From the IMG/VR virus record IMGVR_UViG_3300044845_000975: DNA of 64,000 nucleotides; one strand, 5' to 3'. Below are positions 1 through 59,056 of the stretch, one piece after another. How positions within the stretch are numbered: the first letter of the stretch is position 1; every line of letters begins with the position of its first letter. The translations under genes and the position numbers were made by a program. Below the pieces are notes generated by a model that worked only from the letters and a program-made list of their open reading frames with translations, searched no databases and was not told the origin of the DNA. This stretch comes from an uncultured virus (IMG/VR IMGVR_UViG_3300044845_000975) (Duplodnaviria; Heunggongvirae; Uroviricota; Caudoviricetes).

Positions 1-921
1 CTCTTTAATATCAAGCTTTTGCCGCCTGATTTGAGTAAGTCTAAAAATGATTTCGCCATTGAAGGTAGGAATATTCGATATGGATTAAATAGCATTAAAG
101 GAATCTCTGACAATACTCTTGATTCTCTTATGGAGTTTTGCCAAGCAGACTTGAAAACTAAATACGATGTATTCATTGCAGCTAAACAAGTTGGGCTAAA
201 CATTGGTAATCTATCCGCATTGATTCAGGCTGGCGCACTTAATAGCTTTTCAGAAGATCGTTGCCGTTTAGTTTTAGAGGCTCAAGCCTTTAACATCTTA
301 ACCGAAAGAGAAAAGAGGCTATTCATGTCTTTGGGTGAGAAATATAATTACGATATTTTAAACACAATCCATGATTGCGTTAAAAATAAACAAGTTGGGG
401 ACGATAACAAGCCAATCATGAATGAAAAGAGATTTGATACATTCAAGGGTAAGTATGCTGGCTATCGTGAAATTTACGACAAGAATAGCAAAAGTCCTAA
501 ATTTGCTAACTGGTATTTTGAAAGCAAATTACTTGGTTACTCTTATTCTTATAAGATCAAGGATATTTTTTCGGAAGAAAGTTCAGAACGATACACTGAT
601 TGTCTAACATTCAATTCCCTTGACATTAACGAGTCCGTGCGTATGGTAGGAGTGGTGAAAGACTGCTTTAAGAAGAAAAGCGCCAATGGAAATAAATATG
701 CTAAACTCGAAATCTCTGATGAGAATGGCAAAATTAGAGCTATGCTTCTTGATTCTGCTAGACAAGCTAAACTTACCGAATATTTGGACAATGGCAACAA
801 ATTACCAAAAGAAGAAAACATTGTAATCCTTTCTGGACGTAAAGGAGAAGATATTCTTTTTATTGATAAAATGGCTATTTTAGATGAAAAGATTTATATG
901 AAACTATCTGAGATTAAATAA
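1..921 (+). CDS. dnaE: DNA polymerase III alpha subunit, C-terminal part (5' truncated by window edge)
   Basis: Frame open from base 1; LLPPD..S..F....IRYGLNSIKGI motif, LIQAGAL HhH region, E..LLGY and C-terminal OB fold (KKSANGNKYAKLEISDENG). Confidence 0.9.
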   Translation, partial: LFNIKLLPPDLSKSKNDFAIEGRNIRYGLNSIKGISDNTLDSLMEFCQADLKTKYDVFIAAKQVGLNIGNLSALIQAGALNSFSEDRCRLVLEAQAFNILTEREKRLFMSLGEKYNYDILNTIHDCVKNKQVGDDNKPIMNEKRFDTFKGKYAGYREIYDKNSKSPKFANWYFESKLLGYSYSYKIKDIFSEESSERYTDCLTFNSLDINESVRMVGVVKDCFKKKSANGNKYAKLEISDENGKIRAMLLDSARQAKLTEYLDNGNKLPKEENIVILSGRKGEDILFIDKMAILDEKIYMKLSEIK

Positions 922-931
922 GTGTAAAAAT

Positions 932-3337
932 ATGAGGATGAAAAATTTTAATTTGACCCCGCGAGTCAAAAAAGCAATTCAACAAGCACAAAATGTCGCT
1001 AAAGAATTGGGGCATGAGAGAGTTAATTGTGCCCACATATTCAAAACGATTCTTGAATTGGATTATCCATTATTTAATAATCTTTTTCGTCCTTACTTAG
1101 TTAACCGATATGACTTAGCTTCTGAAGTTATTCCTTTTGTTTTAGAGAATCACCCATCTTTCTTTAAGAAAAGAGTCAATCAAAAAACTTGGCACAACGA
1201 AGTTGAAGAAATTTTAAAATTCTCTAATGAGACTGGTATGCAATTAAATCAGGAATACATTGGCGTTGAACACGTTCTGTATTCATTAGTTATGACTTCT
1301 CCTACTGTCAGGGGATTCTTAGCTGCAAAAAAATTTCCAGTAGATCGTTTTGCAAATACTCTTATTGAGTCAATGAGTCCTCAAAAGATGATGTCTCAAG
1401 AAGAACCAGTTGTCACAGAAGAGGCTGTAGATATTGAGAGTGAAAAAGCGGAAGATGTAAAATATATTCGCAAGTATTGTGTTGATTTAAATAAACTAGC
1501 TTTAGAGAATAAACTCAACAACGTTTATGGGCGAGAAAAAGAAATCGACGCTTTGGCTGAAATTTTATTGAGAAAAAACAAGAGCAATGCAGTTCTTATT
1601 GGAGATCCTGGCGTTGGTAAAACAGCAATCGTTGAAGGATTAGCTCACAAAATTACTCATGGAGAAACTACTGATCTTCTATCAGGCAAGATTATTCTAT
1701 CTCTTAACTTAGGTTCTCTTGTTGCTGGAACAAAATATAGAGGCCAATTCGAAGAGAGATTTCAAGGTCTTTTAGAAAATCTTAAAAAAGATCGTCGCTA
1801 TATTCTTTTTATTGATGAAATTCATACAGTGATTGGCGCTGGTAGTGGAGAAGGTTCTCTCGATGCGGCGAACATGATTAAACCAGCCCTAGCTCGCGGA
1901 GAAATCACTTGTATTGGCGCTACAACACATGCTGAGTACAAGAAGGTCTTTGAGAAAGACTCTGCGTTAAAACGCCGTTTTGAGTCTGTTTCTATTGATG
2001 AGCCTAACACTGTTCAAACCATCAACATTATCAAAAATGCGAAAACTCAATTTGAAGAATTTCATTATGTTAATTTTTCAGAAGATATTATCAAAGATTT
2101 GATTTATCTTTGCGATAAATACATGCCATATAGGAAGTTTCCAGATAAAGCCTTTGACATGATGGACTTTATTGGTTCTAAAATTAAGATTAAAAATTTT
2201 AAACTTCCAAAGAGTATTAAGGACTTAGAAAAAAAAATCAAACAAACTCTTAACGGAAAGACCAGCAATCAAACTCATGACAAGTGCAACGAAATGATTG
2301 CAGACTTTGGTGAAAAACTATGCAAGTGGTCAACTAAAAGTCAAAAAAAAATCAACGTCTCTAGGGAAGATTTAATCTCCTTCTTCGCAGAAAGGCTTCA
2401 AATTAATAAAGATAAAATTGTTATTTCAGATAATGATTGCGGTGAAGACATTGCATCGTCTTTGAAAAAGCTTGTATTTGGTCAAGACAAAGCAATTGAT
2501 AAAATTTCTGATGTTTTAACTTGCTCCCGCGCAGGGTTAAAGTCTAAAAATAAACCTCTTGGTAAATTTTTATTCATTGGTCCTACTGGCGTAGGTAAGA
2601 CTTGGACTGCGAAACTTCTTGCTGACAAGTTCTTTGGTAATGAAAAACTTATTCTTAAATTAGACATGAGTGAATACCAAGAAAGCAGTTCAATTAATAA
2701 ACTAATCGGTTCTACCATTGGTTATATTGGTTCTGAAGAAGGAGGAATTCTTACAGAATTTGTTCGCAATAATCCAAACTCTGTTGTGCTTTTTGATGAA
2801 ATTGAGAAGGCTCATAAAGACCTTTCTAATATCTTGCTTCAAATTATGGATGAAGGTTATGTAACAGACAGTCTTGGTCGAAAAATTGATTTCACTAATA
2901 CTATCATTATTTTAACTGGCAACATTGGTCATGAAACAGCCCAGCCAAAACCATCAATGGGATTTATGCAAACAGCAGAAGAACCATCTGATAATTATAA
3001 AAAAGCTGTGGAATCTTTTTTCCGTCCAGAATTCTTAGCTAGACTTGACGAAGTAATTATTTTCGAGAAAATTACTGGCAAAGAATTTAATCAAATGCTA
3101 GAAAAATTAATCATTAAAACTAAAAAGCTCTTAGCAGAACAGAACAAAAATATCTCTCTTGAAGAAGAAGTATTCCCTTTTCTACTTAAGAAGCTTGAAG
3201 GTCAGGGTAATAATGCCAGAATGATTGAAAAAATTTATCGTCAGCATTTTGAAATCCCATTAGCCAAGTTCTTGCTCAAAACTTCTTCATCTGAAATTTA
3301 TGCAAAAATTAATAGTAATGATGTAATTTTTTCCTAA
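932..3337 (+). CDS. clpC: ClpA/ClpC-type double AAA+ chaperone ATPase
   Basis: Clp-N repeats, Walker A GDPGVGKT and GPTGVGKT, Walker B LFIDEIH and LFDEIEKAH, AGTKYRGQFEER, ClpP-docking MGF loop. Confidence 0.9.
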   Translation: MRMKNFNLTPRVKKAIQQAQNVAKELGHERVNCAHIFKTILELDYPLFNNLFRPYLVNRYDLASEVIPFVLENHPSFFKKRVNQKTWHNEVEEILKFSNETGMQLNQEYIGVEHVLYSLVMTSPTVRGFLAAKKFPVDRFANTLIESMSPQKMMSQEEPVVTEEAVDIESEKAEDVKYIRKYCVDLNKLALENKLNNVYGREKEIDALAEILLRKNKSNAVLIGDPGVGKTAIVEGLAHKITHGETTDLLSGKIILSLNLGSLVAGTKYRGQFEERFQGLLENLKKDRRYILFIDEIHTVIGAGSGEGSLDAANMIKPALARGEITCIGATTHAEYKKVFEKDSALKRRFESVSIDEPNTVQTINIIKNAKTQFEEFHYVNFSEDIIKDLIYLCDKYMPYRKFPDKAFDMMDFIGSKIKIKNFKLPKSIKDLEKKIKQTLNGKTSNQTHDKCNEMIADFGEKLCKWSTKSQKKINVSREDLISFFAERLQINKDKIVISDNDCGEDIASSLKKLVFGQDKAIDKISDVLTCSRAGLKSKNKPLGKFLFIGPTGVGKTWTAKLLADKFFGNEKLILKLDMSEYQESSSINKLIGSTIGYIGSEEGGILTEFVRNNPNSVVLFDEIEKAHKDLSNILLQIMDEGYVTDSLGRKIDFTNTIIILTGNIGHETAQPKPSMGFMQTAEEPSDNYKKAVESFFRPEFLARLDEVIIFEKITGKEFNQMLEKLIIKTKKLLAEQNKNISLEEEVFPFLLKKLEGQGNNARMIEKIYRQHFEIPLAKFLLKTSSSEIYAKINSNDVIFS

Positions 3338-36944: not shown

Positions 36945-37367
36945 ATGAATAGAGAACTAAAATTCCGAGTCTGGCTTCACGATACGAAAGAATGGGGTAA
37001 TGTTTCGTGCTTAGAAGTTTTCAATACAACAGGAAAACTTGAATATTTGTATCAAGATCAGCCATACACTATTCAGCAACACACTGGACTTAAAGATAAA
37101 AATGGAAACGAAATTTATGAAGGCGATATTGTAAAATATGCTCGTACCAAAGTCGAAAGCACTGAATTTGCAAAAGGTTGTTTCAAAAATCACTTAATTG
37201 AACTTGGTGAAGAAATTGGTGAAATTCTTTTTATCAAACCATCTTTTTGTTTATCCTTTGATCATATTCGCTACGATGATATTATGCCAATGTGCCTTGC
37301 TGAACACCGATATGAGGTTATTGGCAACGTCTTCGAAAATAAAGAACTATCAAAAACAAATGAATAG
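36945..37367 (+). CDS. YopX family protein (copy 1)
   Basis: RELKFRVW, QQHTGLKDKNGNEIYEGDIV, EVIGNVFEN. Confidence 0.9.
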   Translation: MNRELKFRVWLHDTKEWGNVSCLEVFNTTGKLEYLYQDQPYTIQQHTGLKDKNGNEIYEGDIVKYARTKVESTEFAKGCFKNHLIELGEEIGEILFIKPSFCLSFDHIRYDDIMPMCLAEHRYEVIGNVFENKELSKTNE

Positions 37368-37767
37368 ATTAAAATACAGAGTGTGGATTACACCATGGGG
37401 CAGTGATACTACGCCTTACATGCACTACATTGAAGACTTGCATTTAGGTGTTGTAATTGGTAATTGGGAAAGAGGTGGATACAAAGATGCTGTTTTTCAG
37501 CAATACACAGGCTTGAAAGATAAAAACGGAAAAGAAATTTATGAAGGCGACATTGTAAAATATAATCCAGATGATCGAACTGTAGATAGAGAAGGAATTA
37601 TCGAATGGTCTAACTATTATCATGGATGGACCATCAGAGATAAACAGTGTTATCCAGAATCAAAATATGGTGTGTTTTCACTAGCTTGTCCATTCATGTC
37701 ATTTAATGATGTGGAAATTATTTGCCATATTTTCGAGAACCCTGAATTAATTAAAACAAATGAATAG
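37360..37767 (+). CDS. YopX family protein (copy 2)
   Basis: LKYRVW, QQYTGLKDKNGKEIYEGDIV, IFENPEL. Confidence 0.9.
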   Translation: MNRLKYRVWITPWGSDTTPYMHYIEDLHLGVVIGNWERGGYKDAVFQQYTGLKDKNGKEIYEGDIVKYNPDDRTVDREGIIEWSNYYHGWTIRDKQCYPESKYGVFSLACPFMSFNDVEIICHIFENPELIKTNE

Positions 37768-38266
37768 ATTTAAATTCCGCATCTGGGATAAACAATATAA
37801 AAAGTGGCTAGAAAACAGCAGCAGTCTTCATTGCAACAGCAATTGGACAATTTGCCCATTCACAGGTAATGTTGTTGATTATGTTGAAACTTGCGACGAA
37901 AATGGTGAGAATTTTTCTGCTTCCCCTGCTAATGATTATTATTGGGAAGATGGAAAACTAATTAAAGAACCGCGATACATCACTCAGCAATACACTGGAT
38001 TGAAAGACAAAAATGGAAAAGAGATTTATGAAGGTGACTTGATTCGTTATGAGAAAGAATACACACCTCTAGATAAATACTCAATCATTGCTCCTGTTGT
38101 CTTTTCTCCTTTTGGATATGGGTTTGTGATTGATTCTTCTGGCAGACATTCTATTGGTGACTTCAAGTATGGTGACTATACCCTTCTTCTTTCTCCAATT
38201 GTGATGGAAAAAAAGGTCACATACGAAGTTGTTGGTAATATTTTTGAAAATAAAAATGATGAATAG
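37760..38266 (+). CDS. YopX family protein (copy 3)
   Basis: FKFRIWD, QQYTGLKDKNGKEIYEGD, EVVGNIFEN. Confidence 0.9.
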   Translation: MNRFKFRIWDKQYKKWLENSSSLHCNSNWTICPFTGNVVDYVETCDENGENFSASPANDYYWEDGKLIKEPRYITQQYTGLKDKNGKEIYEGDLIRYEKEYTPLDKYSIIAPVVFSPFGYGFVIDSSGRHSIGDFKYGDYTLLLSPIVMEKKVTYEVVGNIFENKNDE

Positions 38267-38687
38267 AGAAATTAAATTCCGAGCAAGGGATACAAAAAAT
38301 AATAAGTGGTTAGATTCAGTTCCATCTATGGAATACCTGCTTGACGGTGGGGATCATTCAATAAGTCATCACGATATAGATGATGAATCTTCTATTTACA
38401 CTTACCCTAAAAACTTATTAGGTGATACGTTTAATAGCAGAATTGTTTGGCAGCAATACACTGGATTGAAAGACTCTAAAGGAGTCGAAATTTACGAAGG
38501 TGACATTGTTAAATACTATTTTAACAATCCTGACATTAATTGGGTTGACTTAGTTGCATGGGAGAGTTATGGTTGGAGGCTTCTTCATTTTGATGGGACT
38601 GAGAGTGGATCAACCCCATTAGTTTCTATCCCATCTATGGAAATTATTGGCAACTTCTTTGAAAATAAAGAACTTTTAAATCTATGA
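38259..38687 (+). CDS. YopX family protein (copy 4)
   Basis: REIKFRA, QQYTGLKDSKGVEIYEGDIV, EIIGNFFEN. Confidence 0.9.
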   Translation: MNREIKFRARDTKNNKWLDSVPSMEYLLDGGDHSISHHDIDDESSIYTYPKNLLGDTFNSRIVWQQYTGLKDSKGVEIYEGDIVKYYFNNPDINWVDLVAWESYGWRLLHFDGTESGSTPLVSIPSMEIIGNFFENKELLNL

Positions 38688-41740: not shown

Positions 41741-41782
41741 GATTCTCATTGACAAACCTTCAATCTAGTATATAATTTTACC

Positions 41783-42130
41783 ATGAACAAACATACCATC
41801 ACAATCGGAGACAGCAGTTACATTATTGACCTTGATCGAGCACAGGAACTTGGCATCTGCACTAAGAAGCAGTCCATCACCAGCTTCGAGGTTGGCGATG
41901 TTTTTGAAACGCGAAGCGGTCTTGTTCGCATTCTTATTATCGAATGCAACTGCGGTACCCCTAGCAATGAAACGCTCTACCAATTTGCTGGTCGCGACGG
42001 CCTGAGCACTTACAGCGATCATGATAATCCTATTTCTTACGACAAGATGCTTGAGTATCTAAACAGCAGGGGTTATACTTTTGTTTGCAACATCAATGAT
42101 AGTATTGCAGAGCTTCTTAACAGCATTTAA
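41783..42130 (+). CDS. hypothetical protein
   Basis: Promoter TTGACA(41749)-N16-TATAAT, ATG 6 nt downstream. Confidence 0.7.
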   Translation: MNKHTITIGDSSYIIDLDRAQELGICTKKQSITSFEVGDVFETRSGLVRILIIECNCGTPSNETLYQFAGRDGLSTYSDHDNPISYDKMLEYLNSRGYTFVCNINDSIAELLNSI

Positions 42131-42187
42131 GTTTTAAATAGAATAAAAATTTTGGATGCATGATGAAATCGGTAAACATAGCGGACT

Positions 42188-42871
42188 CTTGAGGGTCGGT
42201 GCATTGGAAACGATGCATTTGTAAGGTGTAAATTCGGTGAACGGTTTAAACTCCCAACGCCGAGCGAAGCTAAAGAAATCTAAAGTAAGTTTGGTAACTT
42301 AGTCTGTATTGGTGTAAATACTAATATGGAAAAAGAAACTAAATTAGCTTATGTGGCAGGATTTATTGATGGAGAAGGTTGTTTAGCAATAAACAAAAGA
42401 ACTCATCGAAATAGAAACGGCGAATGGATAGGGTACTCTTGTTATGTTGATTTAGCAAATACCAATAAAGAAGTAATGGATTTTATAAGAGATTTTTTAA
42501 AAATATCTTCTAAAGTTTATGAAAATAAGTTAAAAGGTAATCGCAAATTAGCATACAGATTGCGTCTAAACATGAACGAATCTAAAAAACTGCTCTCTTT
42601 GATTGGAAAGTATTTAATAGTCAAAAAAAAACAATGCCGAGTATTTTTAGATTTCTGTGAAAACAGTAAAGATAAAGAAAAAAGAGAAGTTCTTTGGCTT
42701 GAAATGAAAAAACTTAATCATAGAGGTCTTTAGACCGTGTAGAGACTATAATCACCTATCTAAAGTTTCAGAAACGATGTGAATAAGACCCGTCAACACT
42801 CTGAAACAATGATAAAGGCATAGTCCAGACCACAAACAGAGAAATCTGGTAGTGAAAACTATAGTGGTAAG
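42188..42871 (+). mobile_element. group I intron (684 nt) in tRNA-Leu
   Basis: 5' exon ends in U paired with G in P1 (GACU/GGUC); P2 with GAAA loop; P3 AGGTG/CACCT; P-like AAATTCGGTGAA and Q-like AACGCCGAGC elements; P7 GACTAT/ATAGTC; two GAAA-capped P9 hairpins; terminal G. Confidence 0.92.
42326..42733 (+). CDS. intron-encoded single-motif LAGLIDADG homing endonuclease
   Basis: LAYVAGFIDGEG, YLIVKKKQ; located between the Q and R elements (P6 region). Confidence 0.9.
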   Translation: MEKETKLAYVAGFIDGEGCLAINKRTHRNRNGEWIGYSCYVDLANTNKEVMDFIRDFLKISSKVYENKLKGNRKLAYRLRLNMNESKKLLSLIGKYLIVKKKQCRVFLDFCENSKDKEKREVLWLEMKKLNHRGL

Positions 42872-42956
42872 TAAAATCCGCTGGCGAAAGCCTTGCCAGT
42901 TCGATCCTGGCTGCATCCACCAATTTCGGTTAAGACCCACCAAAACTATCAAAATT

Positions 42957-43136: not shown

Positions 43137-43146
43137 TTAATGAATT

Positions 43147-43258
43147 TTATCTACCGTGTTTATGCTGACCGAGTTGACAAGCCGAGTTATGTCGGCGGAT
43201 GAAGTGTGAGAGAGCATGTGCCACTAGAATTCTGGGGGACTCTCACAGCGGTAGATAA
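43147..43258 (+). ncRNA. candidate structured ncRNA A
   Basis: 10-bp closing stem ttatctaccg/cggtagataa, inner stems gccga/tcggc and tgtgagag/ctctcaca; strand assumed from flanking genes. Confidence 0.5.
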
Positions 43259-43265
43259 TTAATTT

Positions 43266-43338
43266 TCGAGATTGCGAGTCAGCCTCCGAATCTATACAGT
43301 GATTCTCGACTGTGATAGGAGATAAAGCAGACCGCCCA
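43266..43338 (+). ncRNA. candidate structured ncRNA B
   Basis: GC-rich imperfect hairpin around acagt/actgt with alternative pairing tcgaga/tctcga. Confidence 0.3.
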
Positions 43339-43355
43339 AATTAAAATTAATAAAA

Positions 43356-43468
43356 AAGTGCGTGGCGAAATGCAAAGACGCCTTGGTTTCATGAGCCAAG
43401 TTCCCTATACCAAACCAGCCGTAAGGATACCGTGTATAGTGCAAGTTCAAATCTTGTCGCACTTACCA
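43356..43468 (+). tRNA. atypical tRNA, CAU anticodon, ~41-nt variable region
   Basis: Acceptor AAGTGCG/CGCACTT-A-CCA; anticodon arm TTGGT-TTCATGA-GCCAA; T-arm GCAAG-TTCAAAT-CTTGT; 113 nt. Confidence 0.75.
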
Positions 43469-43514
43469 ATTTCTGATTGACAAACACTATTTTGCCAGTA
43501 TATTAACTCACAAT

Positions 43515-45455
43515 ATGAAAATCCAAAACATTGCAAACCCACTCATCTCTTCTGAAAACATGTCCTCTTCCATTATGGGAATGGACGCTAGGGGAGCAGA
43601 CATGGCAACCTACTATCTTCGCGACAAGATTTACAGTGATAAAATTCTAGCTGTTGTGCGCGAGTATGCTTGCAACGCGCTTGACGAGCATAAGAAACAC
43701 AAGATTGAACAACCAGTGCGCTTTGGCCTTCGTGTTGGTAGTGGAGAAGAGCCTTCATCTTTCTTTGTTCGCGACTACGCTAAGGGACTGAGTGAAGATG
43801 ATATTCGCAACGTGTTTGGCATGTATTTCCGCAGCACAAAGAGCGGCAGTAATGATCAGATTGGTGGTTTTGGCATTGGTTCCAAGGCTGGCCACAGCTA
43901 CACTGATACTTTTTACGTTAAAAGTTTTTACAATGGCGTTTGCAGCCTCTATGCTTGCACTCTCGGTGGCGGCAACACTGGAGTTCCCGTTGGCCACATC
44001 TTCAAGGTGAGTGAAGAACCAACCAGCGAAACAGGCTTAGAAGTTTCTTTGGAAATTAAAACAACAACAGACTATGCTAAGTTTTCAAATCATTGTTATG
44101 ATTTTTGCACATTTTGTTCTCAAAACATTATTCTTTATTTGAACGATGTTGAAGTTCTTCCACACAAACCTAGTTACGAAGAAACGGTTTCTGATTTTAA
44201 ATTCCGTTTTTATAACGACGTTTCAGACTATACGAATGTTAAAATTCACATGGGAGATGTTTGCTACGACAAAAATACATTCGCTTCAGCCTATAACAAT
44301 ATTTGCACAGGTAAAATAAATAAAAATACAGTAATGGTAGTCGAAGTGCCAATGGGCAAAATGACTCTACCAATTTCTCGCGAAGGCTTTGAAGTGACGC
44401 CAGCAAACAATCGAGTGCTGAATGAACTAAAAGAATCAATTGTTAAAATTGTGGAAAAAGACTTGGCTAAAATCAAGCCAATGTCAATCCCTGAACTTAT
44501 TAGTTCAAAAAATGAGTACTCTGTTATTGGCGAAAATTTTCATGTTTATAAAAAAGATTTTTATCCAAACACTCATGAAGTAACACTAAACATTGGAAAA
44601 CTCAATGACAACGCTCTTGAGAAGGTTGATGGTAAGTTTGTTTGCGTTCTTTTGCCTAATAAAGCTTCTTCCGAATACTGGCGCAATAAGATTAAGGAAC
44701 ATGCCACCGCTAATGGCAAAAACTACTATTACTTGAATGAAGGTTTCCTAGATCAGTGCAAAGATCGCCAAGAAGTTGACTCATTCTTTGAATTCAAGAA
44801 AGTAAAGAGTTCATACTTTGGTTGGAAAAAGGGAGCTTCTAAAAGAGTTGTTGACATTAACACAAAGTTTGCTGTTAGCGGCCATTGGAGCAGCAACCAC
44901 TATTGGGATAATAAAAGTCTCAATGCTCTTGAACTTCACAATATGTCTCGCTCCGCCCTTAATCTGCCAACAGCTTCCACTATTGACGAAGCAAAAAAAC
45001 AGATTAAAAATACCAACTTCGAAGAAAGACTTCAGCTTGAGCATTTTAGCTTCTACAGCGACCACTCTAGCGCTTTCACAAATGGCGCAAAAGTCTTTTT
45101 CCGCAGCAAAACCTTGAAGAAGGCAATGCTTGAGATTGGTTGGTTAGATTCCGCAGAAAGTGAGTATAAAAACAAGCTTGAAATTGTTTGCAAGAAAGAA
45201 AAAGATCAAGCAGCACTGAACAATCAGGTGCAAAATTCTTGCCCCAAATTTCTTACTGACTACAATTCTCGCAAGATTAAATTCTCCAAAAATCCCAAAT
45301 ACGCGCAAAAAGCTTATTGCATCATGGAAAAAATTCGCCAAGAACACTCTCTTCGCTCTTCAATCATTAAATCTCTTGACTTTGGCGTTGGACATTGGTA
45401 TAGTAACGTCTTTATTACCCGCAGCGAATTCAGGAAAATCCTGAAAATGAAATAA
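43515..45455 (+). CDS. rIIA: rIIA-like protein with N-terminal GHKL ATPase domain
   Basis: IYSDKILAVVREYACNALD, VRDY..GLS, STK...IGGFGIGSK, SRE motif; upstream of rIIB. Confidence 0.85.
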   Translation: MKIQNIANPLISSENMSSSIMGMDARGADMATYYLRDKIYSDKILAVVREYACNALDEHKKHKIEQPVRFGLRVGSGEEPSSFFVRDYAKGLSEDDIRNVFGMYFRSTKSGSNDQIGGFGIGSKAGHSYTDTFYVKSFYNGVCSLYACTLGGGNTGVPVGHIFKVSEEPTSETGLEVSLEIKTTTDYAKFSNHCYDFCTFCSQNIILYLNDVEVLPHKPSYEETVSDFKFRFYNDVSDYTNVKIHMGDVCYDKNTFASAYNNICTGKINKNTVMVVEVPMGKMTLPISREGFEVTPANNRVLNELKESIVKIVEKDLAKIKPMSIPELISSKNEYSVIGENFHVYKKDFYPNTHEVTLNIGKLNDNALEKVDGKFVCVLLPNKASSEYWRNKIKEHATANGKNYYYLNEGFLDQCKDRQEVDSFFEFKKVKSSYFGWKKGASKRVVDINTKFAVSGHWSSNHYWDNKSLNALELHNMSRSALNLPTASTIDEAKKQIKNTNFEERLQLEHFSFYSDHSSAFTNGAKVFFRSKTLKKAMLEIGWLDSAESEYKNKLEIVCKKEKDQAALNNQVQNSCPKFLTDYNSRKIKFSKNPKYAQKAYCIMEKIRQEHSLRSSIIKSLDFGVGHWYSNVFITRSEFRKILKMK

Positions 45456-45480: not shown

Positions 45481-46107
45481 TTAAATTAATGAACCTTTTC
45501 GAAGATTATCTTTCGCCCAAAGAGGTTGAAGATTTAAATAATGATTTGCTTTCCATGGGTCAGGAGAATTTTTAATAAACCAATTTAAAGGAATTTTATG
45601 GTCAATATGCCACTCTCCATGATTATCCCATGACATACCTTCTGTCCAAAGAGATTCAATATGTAATTTAAATTCTTCTAGCGAGCAACCAAGGTAATCT
45701 AGCGAGCGTAATTCTTTATCTTGTTTTACTGCCCTAGTAACTCTTTGAATGCCTTTTCTCACAAGACACTCCAATTTAAATAATAAATTATTTTTATATC
45801 TTTTTCTTGTTGATTTCATGACATTTTGGACGTGCCTTTTTTTATTTTCATTCCTCCATTTGGTAGATGTTTCATTCATCTTTTCAGAATTTTTATAATA
45901 ATATTTTCTTTTATATGACCTCGCTTTATCTTTATTGTTTTCCACCCATTGTTTAGTATGTTCTATTTTGTTTTCTTTATTTTTTAAATACCATTCTCTA
46001 TTAATTTTATTTATGCAGCATTTGCATCGAGCTAATGGAAAACCTTTAGAAAAATGAAAATCATTTACATCTTTCTCTTCCTTACATAATGAACAAAATT
46101 TTTTCAT
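45481..46107 (-). mobile_element. free-standing HNH homing endonuclease gene
   Basis: N-terminal CxxC..CxxC, LGCS...GMSWDNHGEWHIDHKIP...NHYLNLQPLWAKDN. Confidence 0.88.
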
Positions 46108-46245
46108 ATAATTAATTACACATAAAAAATGAAATCTAAAACAAAAATGAAATCTAATTGAAAAATTCTTGACAAATAGCAATTCTCTAGTATTATTCTT
46201 TCGAATCCCCGCAACAAAACAATAAACAAATAGATAAACAAATAA

Positions 46246-47238
46246 ATGGATTACATCATTAACAGCAGCAGCATCATTCTCTTCCTTGATAATAAGCCAA
46301 TCAAGTTTGAAAAAAGCAGTCGCCAATACGCGCAAATCATCGAGAAGTTTGACCTTCCCGCAGATCAACAAGAAAAGGCGATTCGAGAAGTTATCTTTGA
46401 TTCTCCCTCTTCCTTGAATAAAAATGGCTTTAAAGCCACTGATGAAGGAGTCTTTTACAAGGGCGAGAAGCTTCCAGAAGCTCTTGCTGCGAAGGTTCTT
46501 AGTCTCAACAAGGAAGGTCTTCCTCTCAACTTGTTTGAAAAGTTCTGGCAGAACATCAAGGAAAATCCTTCATGCTCTTCTGTGAATGAGCTTTATGAAT
46601 TCCTTTCTTACAAGGAACTGCCAATCACTGAAGATGGTTGCTTCCTTGCTTACAAAGGTGTTGATAGTAATTTCTGGAGCATTAGCGGCAACAAAGACAC
46701 TAATGTTATCAAGGGTAAGGTGAACTCCTCTGGTCAAATCTACAACGCTGTTGGCGAGCGTATTGAGGTTGTGCGCCGAGATGTTGACGATGACCGCAGA
46801 AATCACTGCTCTCACGGTTTGCACGTTGGCAGTCTCGACTATGCAAGCAACTTTTCTCGCGGAAAGCTTGTAGTGGTCAAGGTTAACCCGAAAGACGTTG
46901 TTAGCGTTCCAACAGACTACAGTTGCCAGAAGTGCCGAGTGAGCGCTTACGAAGTAATTAGTGAGTTTGGCGCTGAAATCAAGGCTCCCGCTGTTGATGA
47001 AAACAATGAGCCGATTATCAACACTGACTGTGCTGCGCGTGATGCCTTTGTTAACAGGGTAAAAAATTATCTTAATAAGATGATTGATAAGGGCTACAGC
47101 GAAGTTTGTGTTCGCAAGATTCAGAACAGTTTCTCACCAGAGTATCCTTCTAAGAATCGAGTACTGGACGCTCTTGAAGAGCTTGGTTACTACTGGCACG
47201 AAGATGATGATGGTCTAATGGTGGTTCTTGAAGACTAA
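46246..47238 (+). CDS. rIIB: rIIB-like protein
   Basis: ENPS...ELYEFL...PITEDGCFLAYKGV, CSHGLHVGSLDYA, VKVNPKDVVSVPTDY. Confidence 0.9.
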   Translation: MDYIINSSSIILFLDNKPIKFEKSSRQYAQIIEKFDLPADQQEKAIREVIFDSPSSLNKNGFKATDEGVFYKGEKLPEALAAKVLSLNKEGLPLNLFEKFWQNIKENPSCSSVNELYEFLSYKELPITEDGCFLAYKGVDSNFWSISGNKDTNVIKGKVNSSGQIYNAVGERIEVVRRDVDDDRRNHCSHGLHVGSLDYASNFSRGKLVVVKVNPKDVVSVPTDYSCQKCRVSAYEVISEFGAEIKAPAVDENNEPIINTDCAARDAFVNRVKNYLNKMIDKGYSEVCVRKIQNSFSPEYPSKNRVLDALEELGYYWHEDDDGLMVVLED

Positions 47239-57913: not shown

Positions 57914-58666
57914 ATGAAACATTCTCAGCCAAATACAACAACTCAACCAAAGCGGTGCTCAACATACTTTTGCGGAAATGATGCGGTTTATACTCGCGGC
58001 GATCCTTACACGAAAAAATGCCAAACATGTTATGACAAGCGATTCGACAAGTCATCTCCAGCTTGGAGGCTAATAAATAATGAAGAGCAAAGCTCCAAAT
58101 ATGCAAATTTACAAACGACTAGCTTGCAAATAAAGCCTCAAGTAGTTTGGCTCTATGGTCTTTCGGGCAGCGGCAAAACAACACTCTCGCGAGCAGTTGC
58201 CGAGAAATTAAAAGCATTAAATATTCCTTGCTTAATCTTGGATGGTGATGAGCTAAGACAGGGAATCAGTAAAGACTTGGATTTTACCTTGCTTGATCGC
58301 TACAAAAATGTTCAACGAGCAGCAGAAATTGCGCGTTTAGCTTGCAGCCAAGGGTTAGTAGTATTGGTGGCCATGATTTCGCCAATGAATATTCACCGCC
58401 TTGAGGCGCAAAGAATAGTTTCGCCGCTACCATTCACAGAAATCTTTCTTGATTGCTCTCTTGAGAAAGCTATAGAGCGTGACGTTAAAGGTTTATATGC
58501 ACGGGCAAAAGCAGGAGAAATACCCCTTTTTACAGGATTAGATTCTCGCTTTGTTCCTCCAAGCTGTAATAAAAATACAATAAATACAGACTCAACAACA
58601 ATCCACGGCAGCATCCAAAAAGTTTTAAACATAATGAGCTTGACAAAAGCCCAAGACAGTGTATAA
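57914..58666 (+). CDS. cysC: adenylyl-sulfate (APS) kinase with N-terminal Cys-rich extension
   Basis: WLYGLSGSGKTT, LDGDELR, ISP...R, RDVKGLY...FTG.DS. Confidence 0.92.
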   Translation: MKHSQPNTTTQPKRCSTYFCGNDAVYTRGDPYTKKCQTCYDKRFDKSSPAWRLINNEEQSSKYANLQTTSLQIKPQVVWLYGLSGSGKTTLSRAVAEKLKALNIPCLILDGDELRQGISKDLDFTLLDRYKNVQRAAEIARLACSQGLVVLVAMISPMNIHRLEAQRIVSPLPFTEIFLDCSLEKAIERDVKGLYARAKAGEIPLFTGLDSRFVPPSCNKNTINTDSTTIHGSIQKVLNIMSLTKAQDSV

Positions 58667-58687: not shown

Positions 58688-58763
58688 AGCGGTTGGCTAG
58701 GCTTGGTGGTCTGGCGAGTCTCATAAGCTTGCAAGCTGAGTTCGATTCTCAGAGCCGCATCCA
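58688..58763 (+). tRNA. trnM: tRNA-Met(CAU), unpaired 1:72 as in initiator tRNA
   Basis: Anticodon loop CTCATAA, T-arm CTGAG-TTCGATT-CTCAG, CCA end; promoter TTGACA(58640)-N16-TATAAT. Confidence 0.8.
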
Positions 58764-58799
58764 AATTTACGAACACGATTTTTCTTAATAAACAAAAAT

Positions 58800-59030
58800 A
58801 TGCAAATCATCTACAAAGAAAAACAGCAAAAGAAACTTGTTCTTGCTGACGTTAAAAAAGATCAATTTTTTGTTAATAATTGTGGCCGCTTGTGCCAAAA
58901 ATATAATCATGATTCTTATCATATTATTGCTGATGAAAATGGTGTTCCGTGTAGCGGAAGAATCGTTGATATGTCCCGCAACACTATAGTTACTCGCATT
59001 CTTCCAGAAGTAGAAAAAATTGAGTTCTAA
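58800..59030 (+). CDS. hypothetical protein between the 28-bp repeats
   Basis: 76-aa ORF; its stop codon overlaps the second repeat. Confidence 0.7.
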   Translation: MQIIYKEKQQKKLVLADVKKDQFFVNNCGRLCQKYNHDSYHIIADENGVPCSGRIVDMSRNTIVTRILPEVEKIEF

Positions 59031-59056
59031 TTTACGAACACGATTTTTCTTAATAA

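Follow-up and report, generated by a model that had tools for sequence, protein, structure and literature searches.

The 64,000-nucleotide (nt) stretch analyzed here, called the window throughout, comes from the uncultured virus IMGVR_UViG_3300044845_000975 (Caudoviricetes), a siphovirus-like phage from lake water without a close cultured relative. Its genes include a lambda-type tail, a ClpB-like ATPase, UvdE, a sigma factor, thymidylate synthase, and other auxiliary genes. The rIIA gene lies at 43515-45455 and rIIB at 46246-47238, and the best match to rIIA in 50,697 phage records has 27% identity. Ending 46 nt upstream of rIIA is a 113-nt tRNA-shaped RNA gene (43356-43468, plus strand), referred to below as the CAU RNA after its anticodon. 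An earlier note made from the letters of the window had described a tRNA body with a CAU anticodon, a variable region of about 41 nt, a 3-base-pair (bp) D stem, and a D loop lacking GG, and direct reading bears out all of these features. The RNA appears to be a selected descendant of a class II leucine tRNA that carries a methionine-type anticodon, and it belongs to a family of phage RNAs in which most members have no anticodon arm.

The 5' strand of the acceptor stem (43356-43362) pairs with 43458-43464 at seven of seven positions, and direct reading places U8 and G9 between it and the D stem. The D arm (43365-43381) is of the leucine type, with a 3-bp stem (43365-43367 with 43379-43381), an A13/A22 mismatch beside that stem, and a 9-nt loop, AAUGCAAAG, without G18G19. 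The anticodon arm (43383-43399) has a 5-bp stem (43383-43387 with 43395-43399) and the loop UUCAUGA, in which U33 precedes the CAU anticodon (43390-43392) and G37 and A38 follow it. The variable region is 41 nt long (43400-43440) and comprises the linker GUUCC, the 6-bp stem CUAUAC/GUAUAG (43405-43410 with 43434-43439), internal loops, a tip of the form CC-GNRA-GG, and U48. The 6-bp stem encloses an internal loop of 8 by 7 nt, and the tip, CC-GUAA-GG (43419-43426), forms a two-pair stem with a GNRA tetraloop. The T arm (43441-43457) has a 5-bp stem and the canonical loop UUCAAAU, and the final stretch (43458-43468) supplies the acceptor 3' strand, the discriminator A73 (43465), and an encoded CCA (43466-43468). 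An alternative pseudoknot is possible between UCC (43402-43404) and GGA (43425-43427), recalling the arm stem of leuV in Escherichia coli; the covariation described below speaks neither for nor against it. The idea that the large arm holds a spare anticodon was rejected: it offers no hairpin with a 7-nt loop and no CAU, and the GAU in its conserved motif has no U before it.

With lax filters, the CAU RNA scores 39.5 bits against the Rfam tRNA model RF00005 (gathering cut-off 29), with E-values of 3.7e-7 in a 311-nt scan and 7.1e-6 in a 6-kilobase (kb) scan; a cloverleaf above the cut-off places it among tRNAs. Standard annotation passes it by. ARAGORN calls three other tRNAs in the window and misses the one at 43356-43468, and an Rfam scan of the whole window with default filters does not list it. 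The minimum-energy fold is the cloverleaf with the extra arm (z = -1.9), and 7 of 200 shuffled sequences fold as well. At only 1.9 standard deviations beyond the shuffles, the fold energy makes thermodynamics alone insufficient for the case. The earlier note had also pointed to a separate CAU tRNA of normal length at 58688. ARAGORN does call a CAU tRNA there (58688-58763, plus strand). It is absent from the Rfam gathering list, and in our own reading its anticodon stem is weak and its first acceptor position is an A1/A72 mismatch. A 28-nt direct repeat (58764-58791) begins directly after this tRNA and recurs at 59029-59056 just before a tRNA-Asn.

Window-type copies of the CAU RNA are found in eight further lake contigs (one from IMG/VR and seven from metagenomes) at 97.3-100% identity. 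Across rIIA in the same contigs, identity is lower, at 77.5-81.3% over the first 546 nt and 59.8-63.6% over the next 654 nt, and in one of them, L047, the 100 nt upstream of the RNA are unrelated to the window. The variants among these contigs are A or G at position 13, C or A at position 26, a GCAA tetraloop in place of GUAA, and UCA in place of CCA, the last in two of the eight (L029 and L046); all appear to sit at neutral spots where the structure is indifferent. A much more divergent copy occurs in G001, an unrelated phage represented by a 58-kb record that is rated 91% complete and has 59% guanine plus cytosine against 37% in the window. This copy scores 49.4 bits and is the sole RF00005 match in the record. 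The 82 open reading frames (ORFs) of the window and the 56 of G001 have zero proteins in common at a blastp threshold of E<1e-4, and the RNA seems to be mobile, moving between unrelated phages.

The window and G001 RNAs are identical at 84 of 113 positions (74%). They differ at 21 of 56 paired columns, with all pairs retained, and at 8 of 57 unpaired columns. Three pairs are double-changed in the acceptor stem and three in the T stem; the anticodon stem has two double-changed pairs and one changed on a single side, and the variable-arm stem has one compensatory and one wobble change. Each of the four variable helices therefore shows compensatory change. The loops, for their part, are conserved: the T loop is invariant, the anticodon loop is the same except at position 32, and the inner motif of the variable arm, AACCAGCCG-N-AAGGAUACCG, is kept with the tetraloop variants GUAA, GCAA, and GAAA. 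In an alignment of five sequences, 9 of 28 pairs are double-changed and 100% of cells are paired, which none of 500 shuffles equals and which compares with 0-2 double-changed pairs in slid controls; all of this covariation comes from one divergent lineage, G001, and amounts to two independent samples. The combination of conserved loops, a conserved inner motif, and covarying stems looks like the signature of a working RNA and argues that the gene is real and selected. A decaying pseudo-tRNA, which the earlier note would have seen in a sequence without conserved homologs, or a chance cloverleaf would fit the missed ARAGORN call and the modest fold energy. This explanation is hardly tenable and was rejected given the compensatory changes and conserved loops in homologs, the presence of the RNA in two unrelated phages, and an identity of 97-100% for the RNA against 60-81% for flanking genes.

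The search for homologs with the same arm, suggested in the earlier note, thus yielded eight window-type contigs and the G001 copy, together the CAU sub-family. In viral contigs, the exact D arm retrieved one locus, itself a sub-family member, and four looser queries each retrieved two members: a structural pattern (3 loci), the variable-arm motif (17 loci), the arm with the T loop (7 loci), and the loop with the linker (3 loci). Metagenome contigs gave 41 loci with seven members and genome contigs 24 loci with none; both of these scans demanded the D arm, a YUCAUR loop, and a GTTCRAAT T loop, which means that members with other anticodons outside IMG/VR would be missed. BLAST against the 50,697 phage records returned one 19-nt T-arm match and otherwise nothing for the CAU RNA. 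Two loci that look similar by eye, L217 and L213, were not accepted as members, with scores of only 26.2 and 18.7 bits against R1, an RNA model built in this analysis that gives the window copy 142 bits. The L217 locus (244-352, plus strand) is a 109-nt tRNA-like RNA with a 7-bp acceptor stem, a T arm, A73, an "anticodon" loop GAAAGCC without U33, and a variable region of about 39 nt with the tip CC-GAAA-GG; another T-arm-like stretch lies upstream of it.

The body of the CAU RNA is best understood by alignment with E. coli leuV, annotated as tRNA-Leu(CAG) in NC_000913.3. The D arms of the two are the same except for four letters of the D loop, GCAA here and UGGU in leuV, and this exchange is what removes G18G19. 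The full D loops read AAUGCAAAG in the window, AAUGUAAAG in G001, and AAUUGGUAG in leuV. Also in common with leuV are the 3-bp D stem with its 13/22 mismatch, A14, A15, A20a, U48, G37, A73, the 7/5 geometry of acceptor and T stems, and a long variable region, although by our count that region is 41 nt in the CAU RNA and 14 nt in leuV. The anticodon loops differ (UUCAGGU in leuV, UUCAUGA here). Compared with bacterial tRNA-Leu in general, the RNA has the class II body and has neither a leucine anticodon (NAG or YAA) nor, in the window or in G001, G18G19. CAU is one base away from the leucine anticodons CAA and CAG. With model R1, the window-type and G001 copies score 129-142 bits, and the E. 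coli leuQPV genes, at 48.9-50.3 bits, are the best of the annotated ordinary tRNAs that were scored. The leucine-type reading of the body in the earlier note gains support from the leuV-like D arm and the common A73 and G37, and the sequence suggests that the CAU RNA was derived from a class II leucine tRNA.

The same D arm is found well beyond the CAU sub-family. A motif scan of IMG/VR gave 48 D-arm loci, and in 41 of them a scripted search found a full frame, consisting of a 7-nt 5' strand, U8, the D arm, a 5-bp T stem with its loop, and a 3' strand pairing at no fewer than six of seven positions; the other seven were unresolved within 260 nt. The resulting family is defined by the D arm GGCGRAAUGYAAAGACGC, a T loop of the UUCAAAU type, a 7-bp acceptor stem, and a variable center. 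The CAU RNA fits this definition, and it accounts for two of the framed loci, the window-type contig L253 and G001 (L228). The 41 loci use 20 distinct acceptor 5' strands, each with its complement; the D arm is identical in 33, the T loop is UUCAAAU in 36, the discriminator is A in 30, and CCA is encoded in 9. Between the D and T arms they carry 37 distinct centers of 32-223 nt, among which no common motif was found. Members other than the CAU RNA score 45-55 bits with model R1, and Rfam on 20 family loci returned weak tRNA matches in 12 (27.4-37.5 bits) and no other family.

A hairpin in anticodon-arm geometry is present in just 4 of the 41 framed loci (the window type, G001, L229, and L237). 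The loops are UUCAUGA in the window type, CUCAUGA in G001, and UUCAAGA in L229, and the loop of L237 has no U33. The L229 loop holds the leucine anticodon CAA and differs from the window loop at nucleotide 36 only. The family is widespread among phages and uncatalogued, and within it the retained and selected anticodon arm of the CAU RNA is notable. Membership in this family of look-alikes also means that the CAU RNA is probably not an ordinary decoding tRNA. Because the whole family escapes ARAGORN and Rfam at default filter settings, it is under-reported in phage annotations. In L047, a second tRNA-shaped RNA (1057-1142, plus strand) precedes the CAU RNA at a distance of 15 nt. It combines the same 7-bp acceptor stem with A73, CCA, a similar T arm, and a degenerate D arm, with a 4-bp hairpin and GUGA tetraloop where a 7-nt anticodon loop would be expected, and ARAGORN calls nothing there.

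Stable tRNA-like RNAs from phages T4 and T5 have been known for decades. T5 RNA1 (NC_005859.1, 30501-30644) is annotated as "tRNA-like stable RNA with unknown functions" and T4 rnaC/rnaD (NC_000866.4, 70908-71171) as "small, stable RNA; species 1/2." Like the CAU RNA, T5 RNA1 has a leucine-type D arm and a T arm, which flank a long central insert, and it sits among phage tRNA genes, and T4 rnaC ends in a T-arm-like hairpin and is likewise encoded among phage tRNA genes. Differences are also evident: the D loop of T5 RNA1 still contains GG, model R1 gives T5 RNA1 only 18.6 bits, and by our own reading neither it nor T4 rnaC/rnaD has a 7-nt CAU anticodon loop or a GNRA-tipped arm. By analogy, the CAU RNA is probably the same kind of RNA, a kinship of type for which sequence homology is not demonstrated. 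The selected anticodon arm that it retains is what would tie this enigmatic class to ordinary tRNAs, and it also makes the RNA directly testable with standard charging, decoding, and toxin-protection assays.

Three other groups of unusual tRNAs invite comparison. The nev-tRNAs of nematodes, in the portion of Hamashima et al. (2012, PMC3333845) consulted, similarly combine class II bodies derived from tRNA-Leu with anticodons of other amino acids; they are eukaryotic, keep the determinants for leucylation, and are charged with leucine, whereas the CAU RNA lacks G18G19. The allo-tRNAs of bacteria and phages (Mukai et al. 2017, PMC5389517) also have long arms and diverse anticodons, and the sections consulted propose a regulatory role for some; their acceptor and T branches are 8/4 or 9/3, unlike the 7/5 of the CAU RNA, which is not one of them. 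In aptamer-tagged tRNAs, as described in the excerpt of Mukai (2020, PMC7590224), a hairpin at the tip of the variable arm binds a protein and the tRNA is either sequestered or still charged; these are synthetic, and the CAU RNA has no known protein partner. No description of a 113-nt CAU RNA turned up among the papers listed by full-text searches of the open literature.

What such an RNA does can be approached through the rules by which tRNAs are recognized. The reading given the most weight here, at a probability of roughly 0.38, is that the CAU RNA is a selected, leucine-derived, tRNA-shaped RNA that is recognized by methionyl-tRNA synthetase (MetRS), methionylated, and matched to AUG, with the large arm as an added module. 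The frame of acceptor stem, D arm, T arm, A73, and CCA would allow RNase P, 3' trimming, and CCA enzymes to excise the RNA from an early transcript and would keep it stable. Host MetRS, reading mainly the anticodon, would then recognize the CAU loop and A73. The loss of G18G19 would remove recognition by leucyl-tRNA synthetase (LeuRS), and G37 would preclude the modification t6A37, on which bacterial isoleucyl-tRNA synthetase (IleRS) relies. Once methionylated, the RNA would act as a Met-type tRNA of distinct structure that can meet AUG, and the large variable arm with its GNRA-capped hairpin may serve as a binding or insulating module.

The evidence for this assignment comes from a comparison with E. 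coli identity elements. In the sections of Giege and Eriani (2023, PMC9976931) that cover these tRNAs, leucine identity depends on A73, G18G19, A15-U48, and A20a, with the anticodon and the long arm dispensable; MetRS charges tRNA-Val that has been given CAU as well as it charges tRNA-Met; and t6A37 is a strong determinant for bacterial IleRS. By these rules the CAU loop with A73 favors MetRS, the missing G18G19 disfavors leucylation, and isoleucine charging is disfavored because G37 cannot carry t6A. The elongator tRNA-Met determinants CAU and A73 are present in the window and G001 copies, and the RNA also has the canonical T loop of elongator tRNA-Met and tRNA-Ile2 (CAU). It departs from both in lacking the class I body, the short variable loop, the 4-bp D stem of elongator tRNA-Met, the D-loop GG (G18G19), and A37. 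Bacterial initiator tRNA-fMet, marked by a 1:72 mismatch and by three successive G-C pairs at the foot of the anticodon stem, is not a match either: positions 1 and 72 are paired in both copies (A1-U72 in the window, G1-C72 in G001), and pair 31-39 is U-G in the window copy and C-G in that of G001.

Several observations weigh against methionylation and AUG decoding. An anticodon arm is missing from 37 of the 41 framed family members, which are unable to decode, and a non-decoding role for the whole family, including the CAU RNA, is plausible. The CAU sub-family itself comprises two independent lineages, and the conservation of single bases such as CAU and G37 is weakly sampled. The loss of G18G19 should disturb the tRNA elbow used by the ribosome and by enzymes. 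A G37 beside U36 is atypical for readers of codons that start with A, and AUG supply is seldom limiting, with phages seldom adding to it; AUG makes up 16.5 per 1000 codons in the window and 20.8 in G001. The identity rules are those of E. coli and need not be those of the hosts of these phages. The A1-U72 pair of the window copy is, moreover, a context-dependent antideterminant for E. coli MetRS in the same part of that review (PMC9976931).

Transcription adds two further points on that side. The strong sigma-70-like promoter of this region, at 43477-43504, lies just downstream of the CAU RNA and serves rIIA. No sigma-70-like promoter was found directly upstream of the CAU RNA, the nearest on the same strand being at 42117-42144 and 41749-41776. 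Of the 24 sequencing runs listed, 18 hold at least half of the sampled words, all of them lake-water DNA and three of them flagged as a possible source. Contigs from four RNA or RNA-labelled runs span 43145-43340 together with portions of the insert in a neighboring tRNA-Leu gene, and none covers 43374-43514. These RNA-run contigs diverge from the window at 43340, which assigns them to relatives without the CAU RNA and makes them uninformative on its expression. Two of the promoters appear to be of one early type, with TTGACAAAC..., a 16-nt spacer, and TATATT or TATAAT (43477-43510 and 41749-41776, plus strand), and they are common to the related contigs L001 and L002; the conserved promoter marks a mosaic-exchange boundary beside the CAU RNA.

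That the RNA belongs to a family mostly without an anticodon arm lends weight to a tentative alternative, held at nearly the same weight as the Met-type reading, in which it does not decode at all and acts as a mimic or decoy. The frame would provide processing and stability, and the frame, the CAU hairpin, and the GNRA hairpin would bait a host factor that handles tRNAs; candidate targets are an anticodon nuclease, MetRS, and a nucleotidyltransferase toxin of the AbiEii or MenT kind acting on class II tRNA ends, the last as an idea only. Most of the framed relatives have dropped the anticodon arm, yet the D arm and T loop stay nearly constant, and the second RNA in L047 lacks an anticodon loop as well. 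The gene stands just before rIIA and rIIB, for which the PHROGs name is "RIIA/RIIB lysis inhibitor," it is the only RF00005 match in G001, and it moves between unrelated phages. In the part of a recent preprint (10.64898/2026.01.19.700257) that bears on these toxins, MenT enzymes extend tRNA 3'-CCA ends, MenT1 acting on a tRNA-Leu and MenT3 on tRNA-Ser, and AbiEii "likely" prefers class II tRNAs. What a decoy does not readily explain is the anticodon arm, the geometry of which (a single spacer nucleotide, a stem of 5 bp, and a loop of 7 nt with U33 and a purine at 37) is kept with compensation in two lineages; bait for a toxin that acts on the acceptor end would need none of this. No partner in defense or counter-defense was identified, and the window and G001 have no protein in common. 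A broader and rather unlikely version would make the family a mobile counter-defense class, in which tRNA-Leu frames, processed in the manner of tRNAs and fitted with swappable hairpin cargos, absorb a tRNA-targeting abortive-infection toxin, such as an AbiEii/MenT-like enzyme with a preference for class II tRNAs, or give the phage a toxin-proof private Met-tRNA. It is similarly a long shot that the cargo of the CAU RNA is, on this account, a live anticodon arm plus the GNRA hairpin, a natural counterpart of the aptamer-tagged tRNAs.

The remaining explanations keep the RNA in translation and change its amino acid or its mature form. Mis-charging by LeuRS, raised in the earlier note, would make it a missense tRNA like the nev-tRNAs, with the body charged by LeuRS and AUG sometimes read as leucine. 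The leucine-type body with A73, A15/U48, and A20a suits this, E. coli LeuRS is blind to the anticodon and the long arm in the review sections cited (PMC9976931), and nev-tRNAs with class II bodies and non-leucine anticodons are leucine-charged and decode in vitro in the portion of that study at hand (PMC3333845). It is nonetheless improbable and, under E. coli rules, disfavored: G18G19 is replaced in both lineages and throughout the frame family, and the same review sections hold that the G18:U55 and G19-C56 contacts are required for leucylation in E. coli and that CAU would draw MetRS as well (PMC9976931). Less probable again is an Ile2-type reader of AUA, in which TilS would convert C34 to lysidine and IleRS would charge the RNA. 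CAU with A73 would allow it, the second CAU tRNA at 58688 could let the two divide methionine and isoleucine between them, and AUA is in use (8.9 per 1000 codons in the window and 2.9 in G001). The E. coli marks for TilS and IleRS, namely C4-G69, C5-G68, C29-G41, and U12-A23, are absent from the CAU RNA. In both lineages G37 fails the requirement of bacterial IleRS for A37 with t6A, as given in the relevant part of PMC9976931. Other class II CAU tRNAs do exist, in L043 and L059 (54.5 and 54.7 bits), but they have A37 and a different sequence and score 41-45 bits with model R1 against 129-142 bits for the CAU sub-family. These two (L043:2488-2575 and L059:68-161, both minus strand) are unrelated long-arm tRNAs with D-loop GG and a U discriminator, and they indicate that long-armed CAU tRNAs occur in other metagenomic contigs as well. 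The earlier note had also thought of a removable insert, with a hairpin of about 35 nt cut from the variable region to leave a CAU tRNA of normal length. Inserts in tRNA genes do occur in this phage, as the neighboring tRNA-Leu(UAA) is split by an intron-like insert of 684 nt. The idea is very unlikely and found no support here: about 35 nt is far below the size of a self-splicing intron, the position is that of a variable region, the arm stem covaries, and the arm loops are conserved. Rfam over 43250-43560 matches only tRNA at a meaningful score, so the RNA does not qualify as an intron-containing tRNA, and of 85 window ORFs searched against PHROGs, none had a match described as an RNA ligase or a polynucleotide kinase (the sole "kinase" match among window ORFs, at 57914-58666, is to Pfam APS_kinase). 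Excision would also leave a class II D arm with a 3-bp stem and no GG, and members of the family bear diverse centers of 32-223 nt.

Whichever reading holds, the CAU RNA presents a clean conflict of identity, with a leucine body, a methionine anticodon, and G37. Should it prove to be charged and used, it would be a natural tRNA with a built-in hairpin module, a matter of interest for genetic-code engineering; should it prove a decoy, it would point to a new layer in the conflict between phage and host over tRNAs. In scans of 105 window ORFs and of 55 of the 56 G001 ORFs (all but one of 3452 amino acids), no match was named as a synthetase, TilS, a CCA-adding enzyme, or an RNA ligase.

Upstream of the CAU RNA, the split tRNA-Leu(UAA) gene occupies 42154-42922 (plus strand), with a 5' exon at 42154-42187 that ends in ACU and a 3' exon at 42872-42922 that ends in A73 and CCA. 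The insert (42188-42871) contains a LAGLIDADG endonuclease ORF at 42326-42733 (Pfam, 4.6e-10). Two features are compatible with a group I intron, namely a U-G pair at the 5' junction and a G preceding the 3' exon; Rfam intron models gave no match to the insert at E<=10. The core of the insert (42809-42880) resembles stretches in Agrobacterium phage Atu_ph07 and in crAss-like phages, and contigs of relatives in the RNA runs join 42243 or 42274 to 42736 or 42738, a form of the insert without the ORF.

Between the tRNA-Leu gene and the CAU RNA lie two further elements on the plus strand. The first, called P1 (43146-43259), is a structured RNA, about 110 nt long, that folds around a three-way junction (fold z = -4.2) and has relatives at no fewer than nine IMG/VR loci, for which RNAalifold gives 21 pairs, 9 of them with compensatory changes; it has no Rfam match at E<=1. 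P1 falls in the 43145-43340 stretch covered by contigs of the four RNA-labelled runs. It also stands just upstream of the CAU RNA in the unrelated G001. Outside the window its neighbors are recombination and replication genes: a RecT-like gene in L142, and in G001 a Gp2.5-like single-stranded DNA-binding protein on one side and a DNA polymerase on the other. A pairing of the large arm with P1 was considered and rejected as it is not conserved in G001. The second element, of 83 nt (43256-43338), has possible pseudoknotted hairpins and is 96-98% conserved in window-type contigs; it is also conserved in L001, where about 410 nt of other sequence replaces the CAU RNA. Its CUAUAC could in principle pair with the 3' strand of the arm, a candidate likewise rejected, the motif being CUACAC in three contigs without any change in the arm.

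Two observations from farther along the window can be added. An endonuclease VII-like ORF (45481-46371, minus strand) lies between rIIA and rIIB and, in the ORF list, overlaps the start of rIIB; it may be the insertion of a mobile endonuclease. At 37198-38687 (plus strand) there are three tandem paralogous ORFs, all assigned to phrog_98, with repeated matches in L001 and L002.

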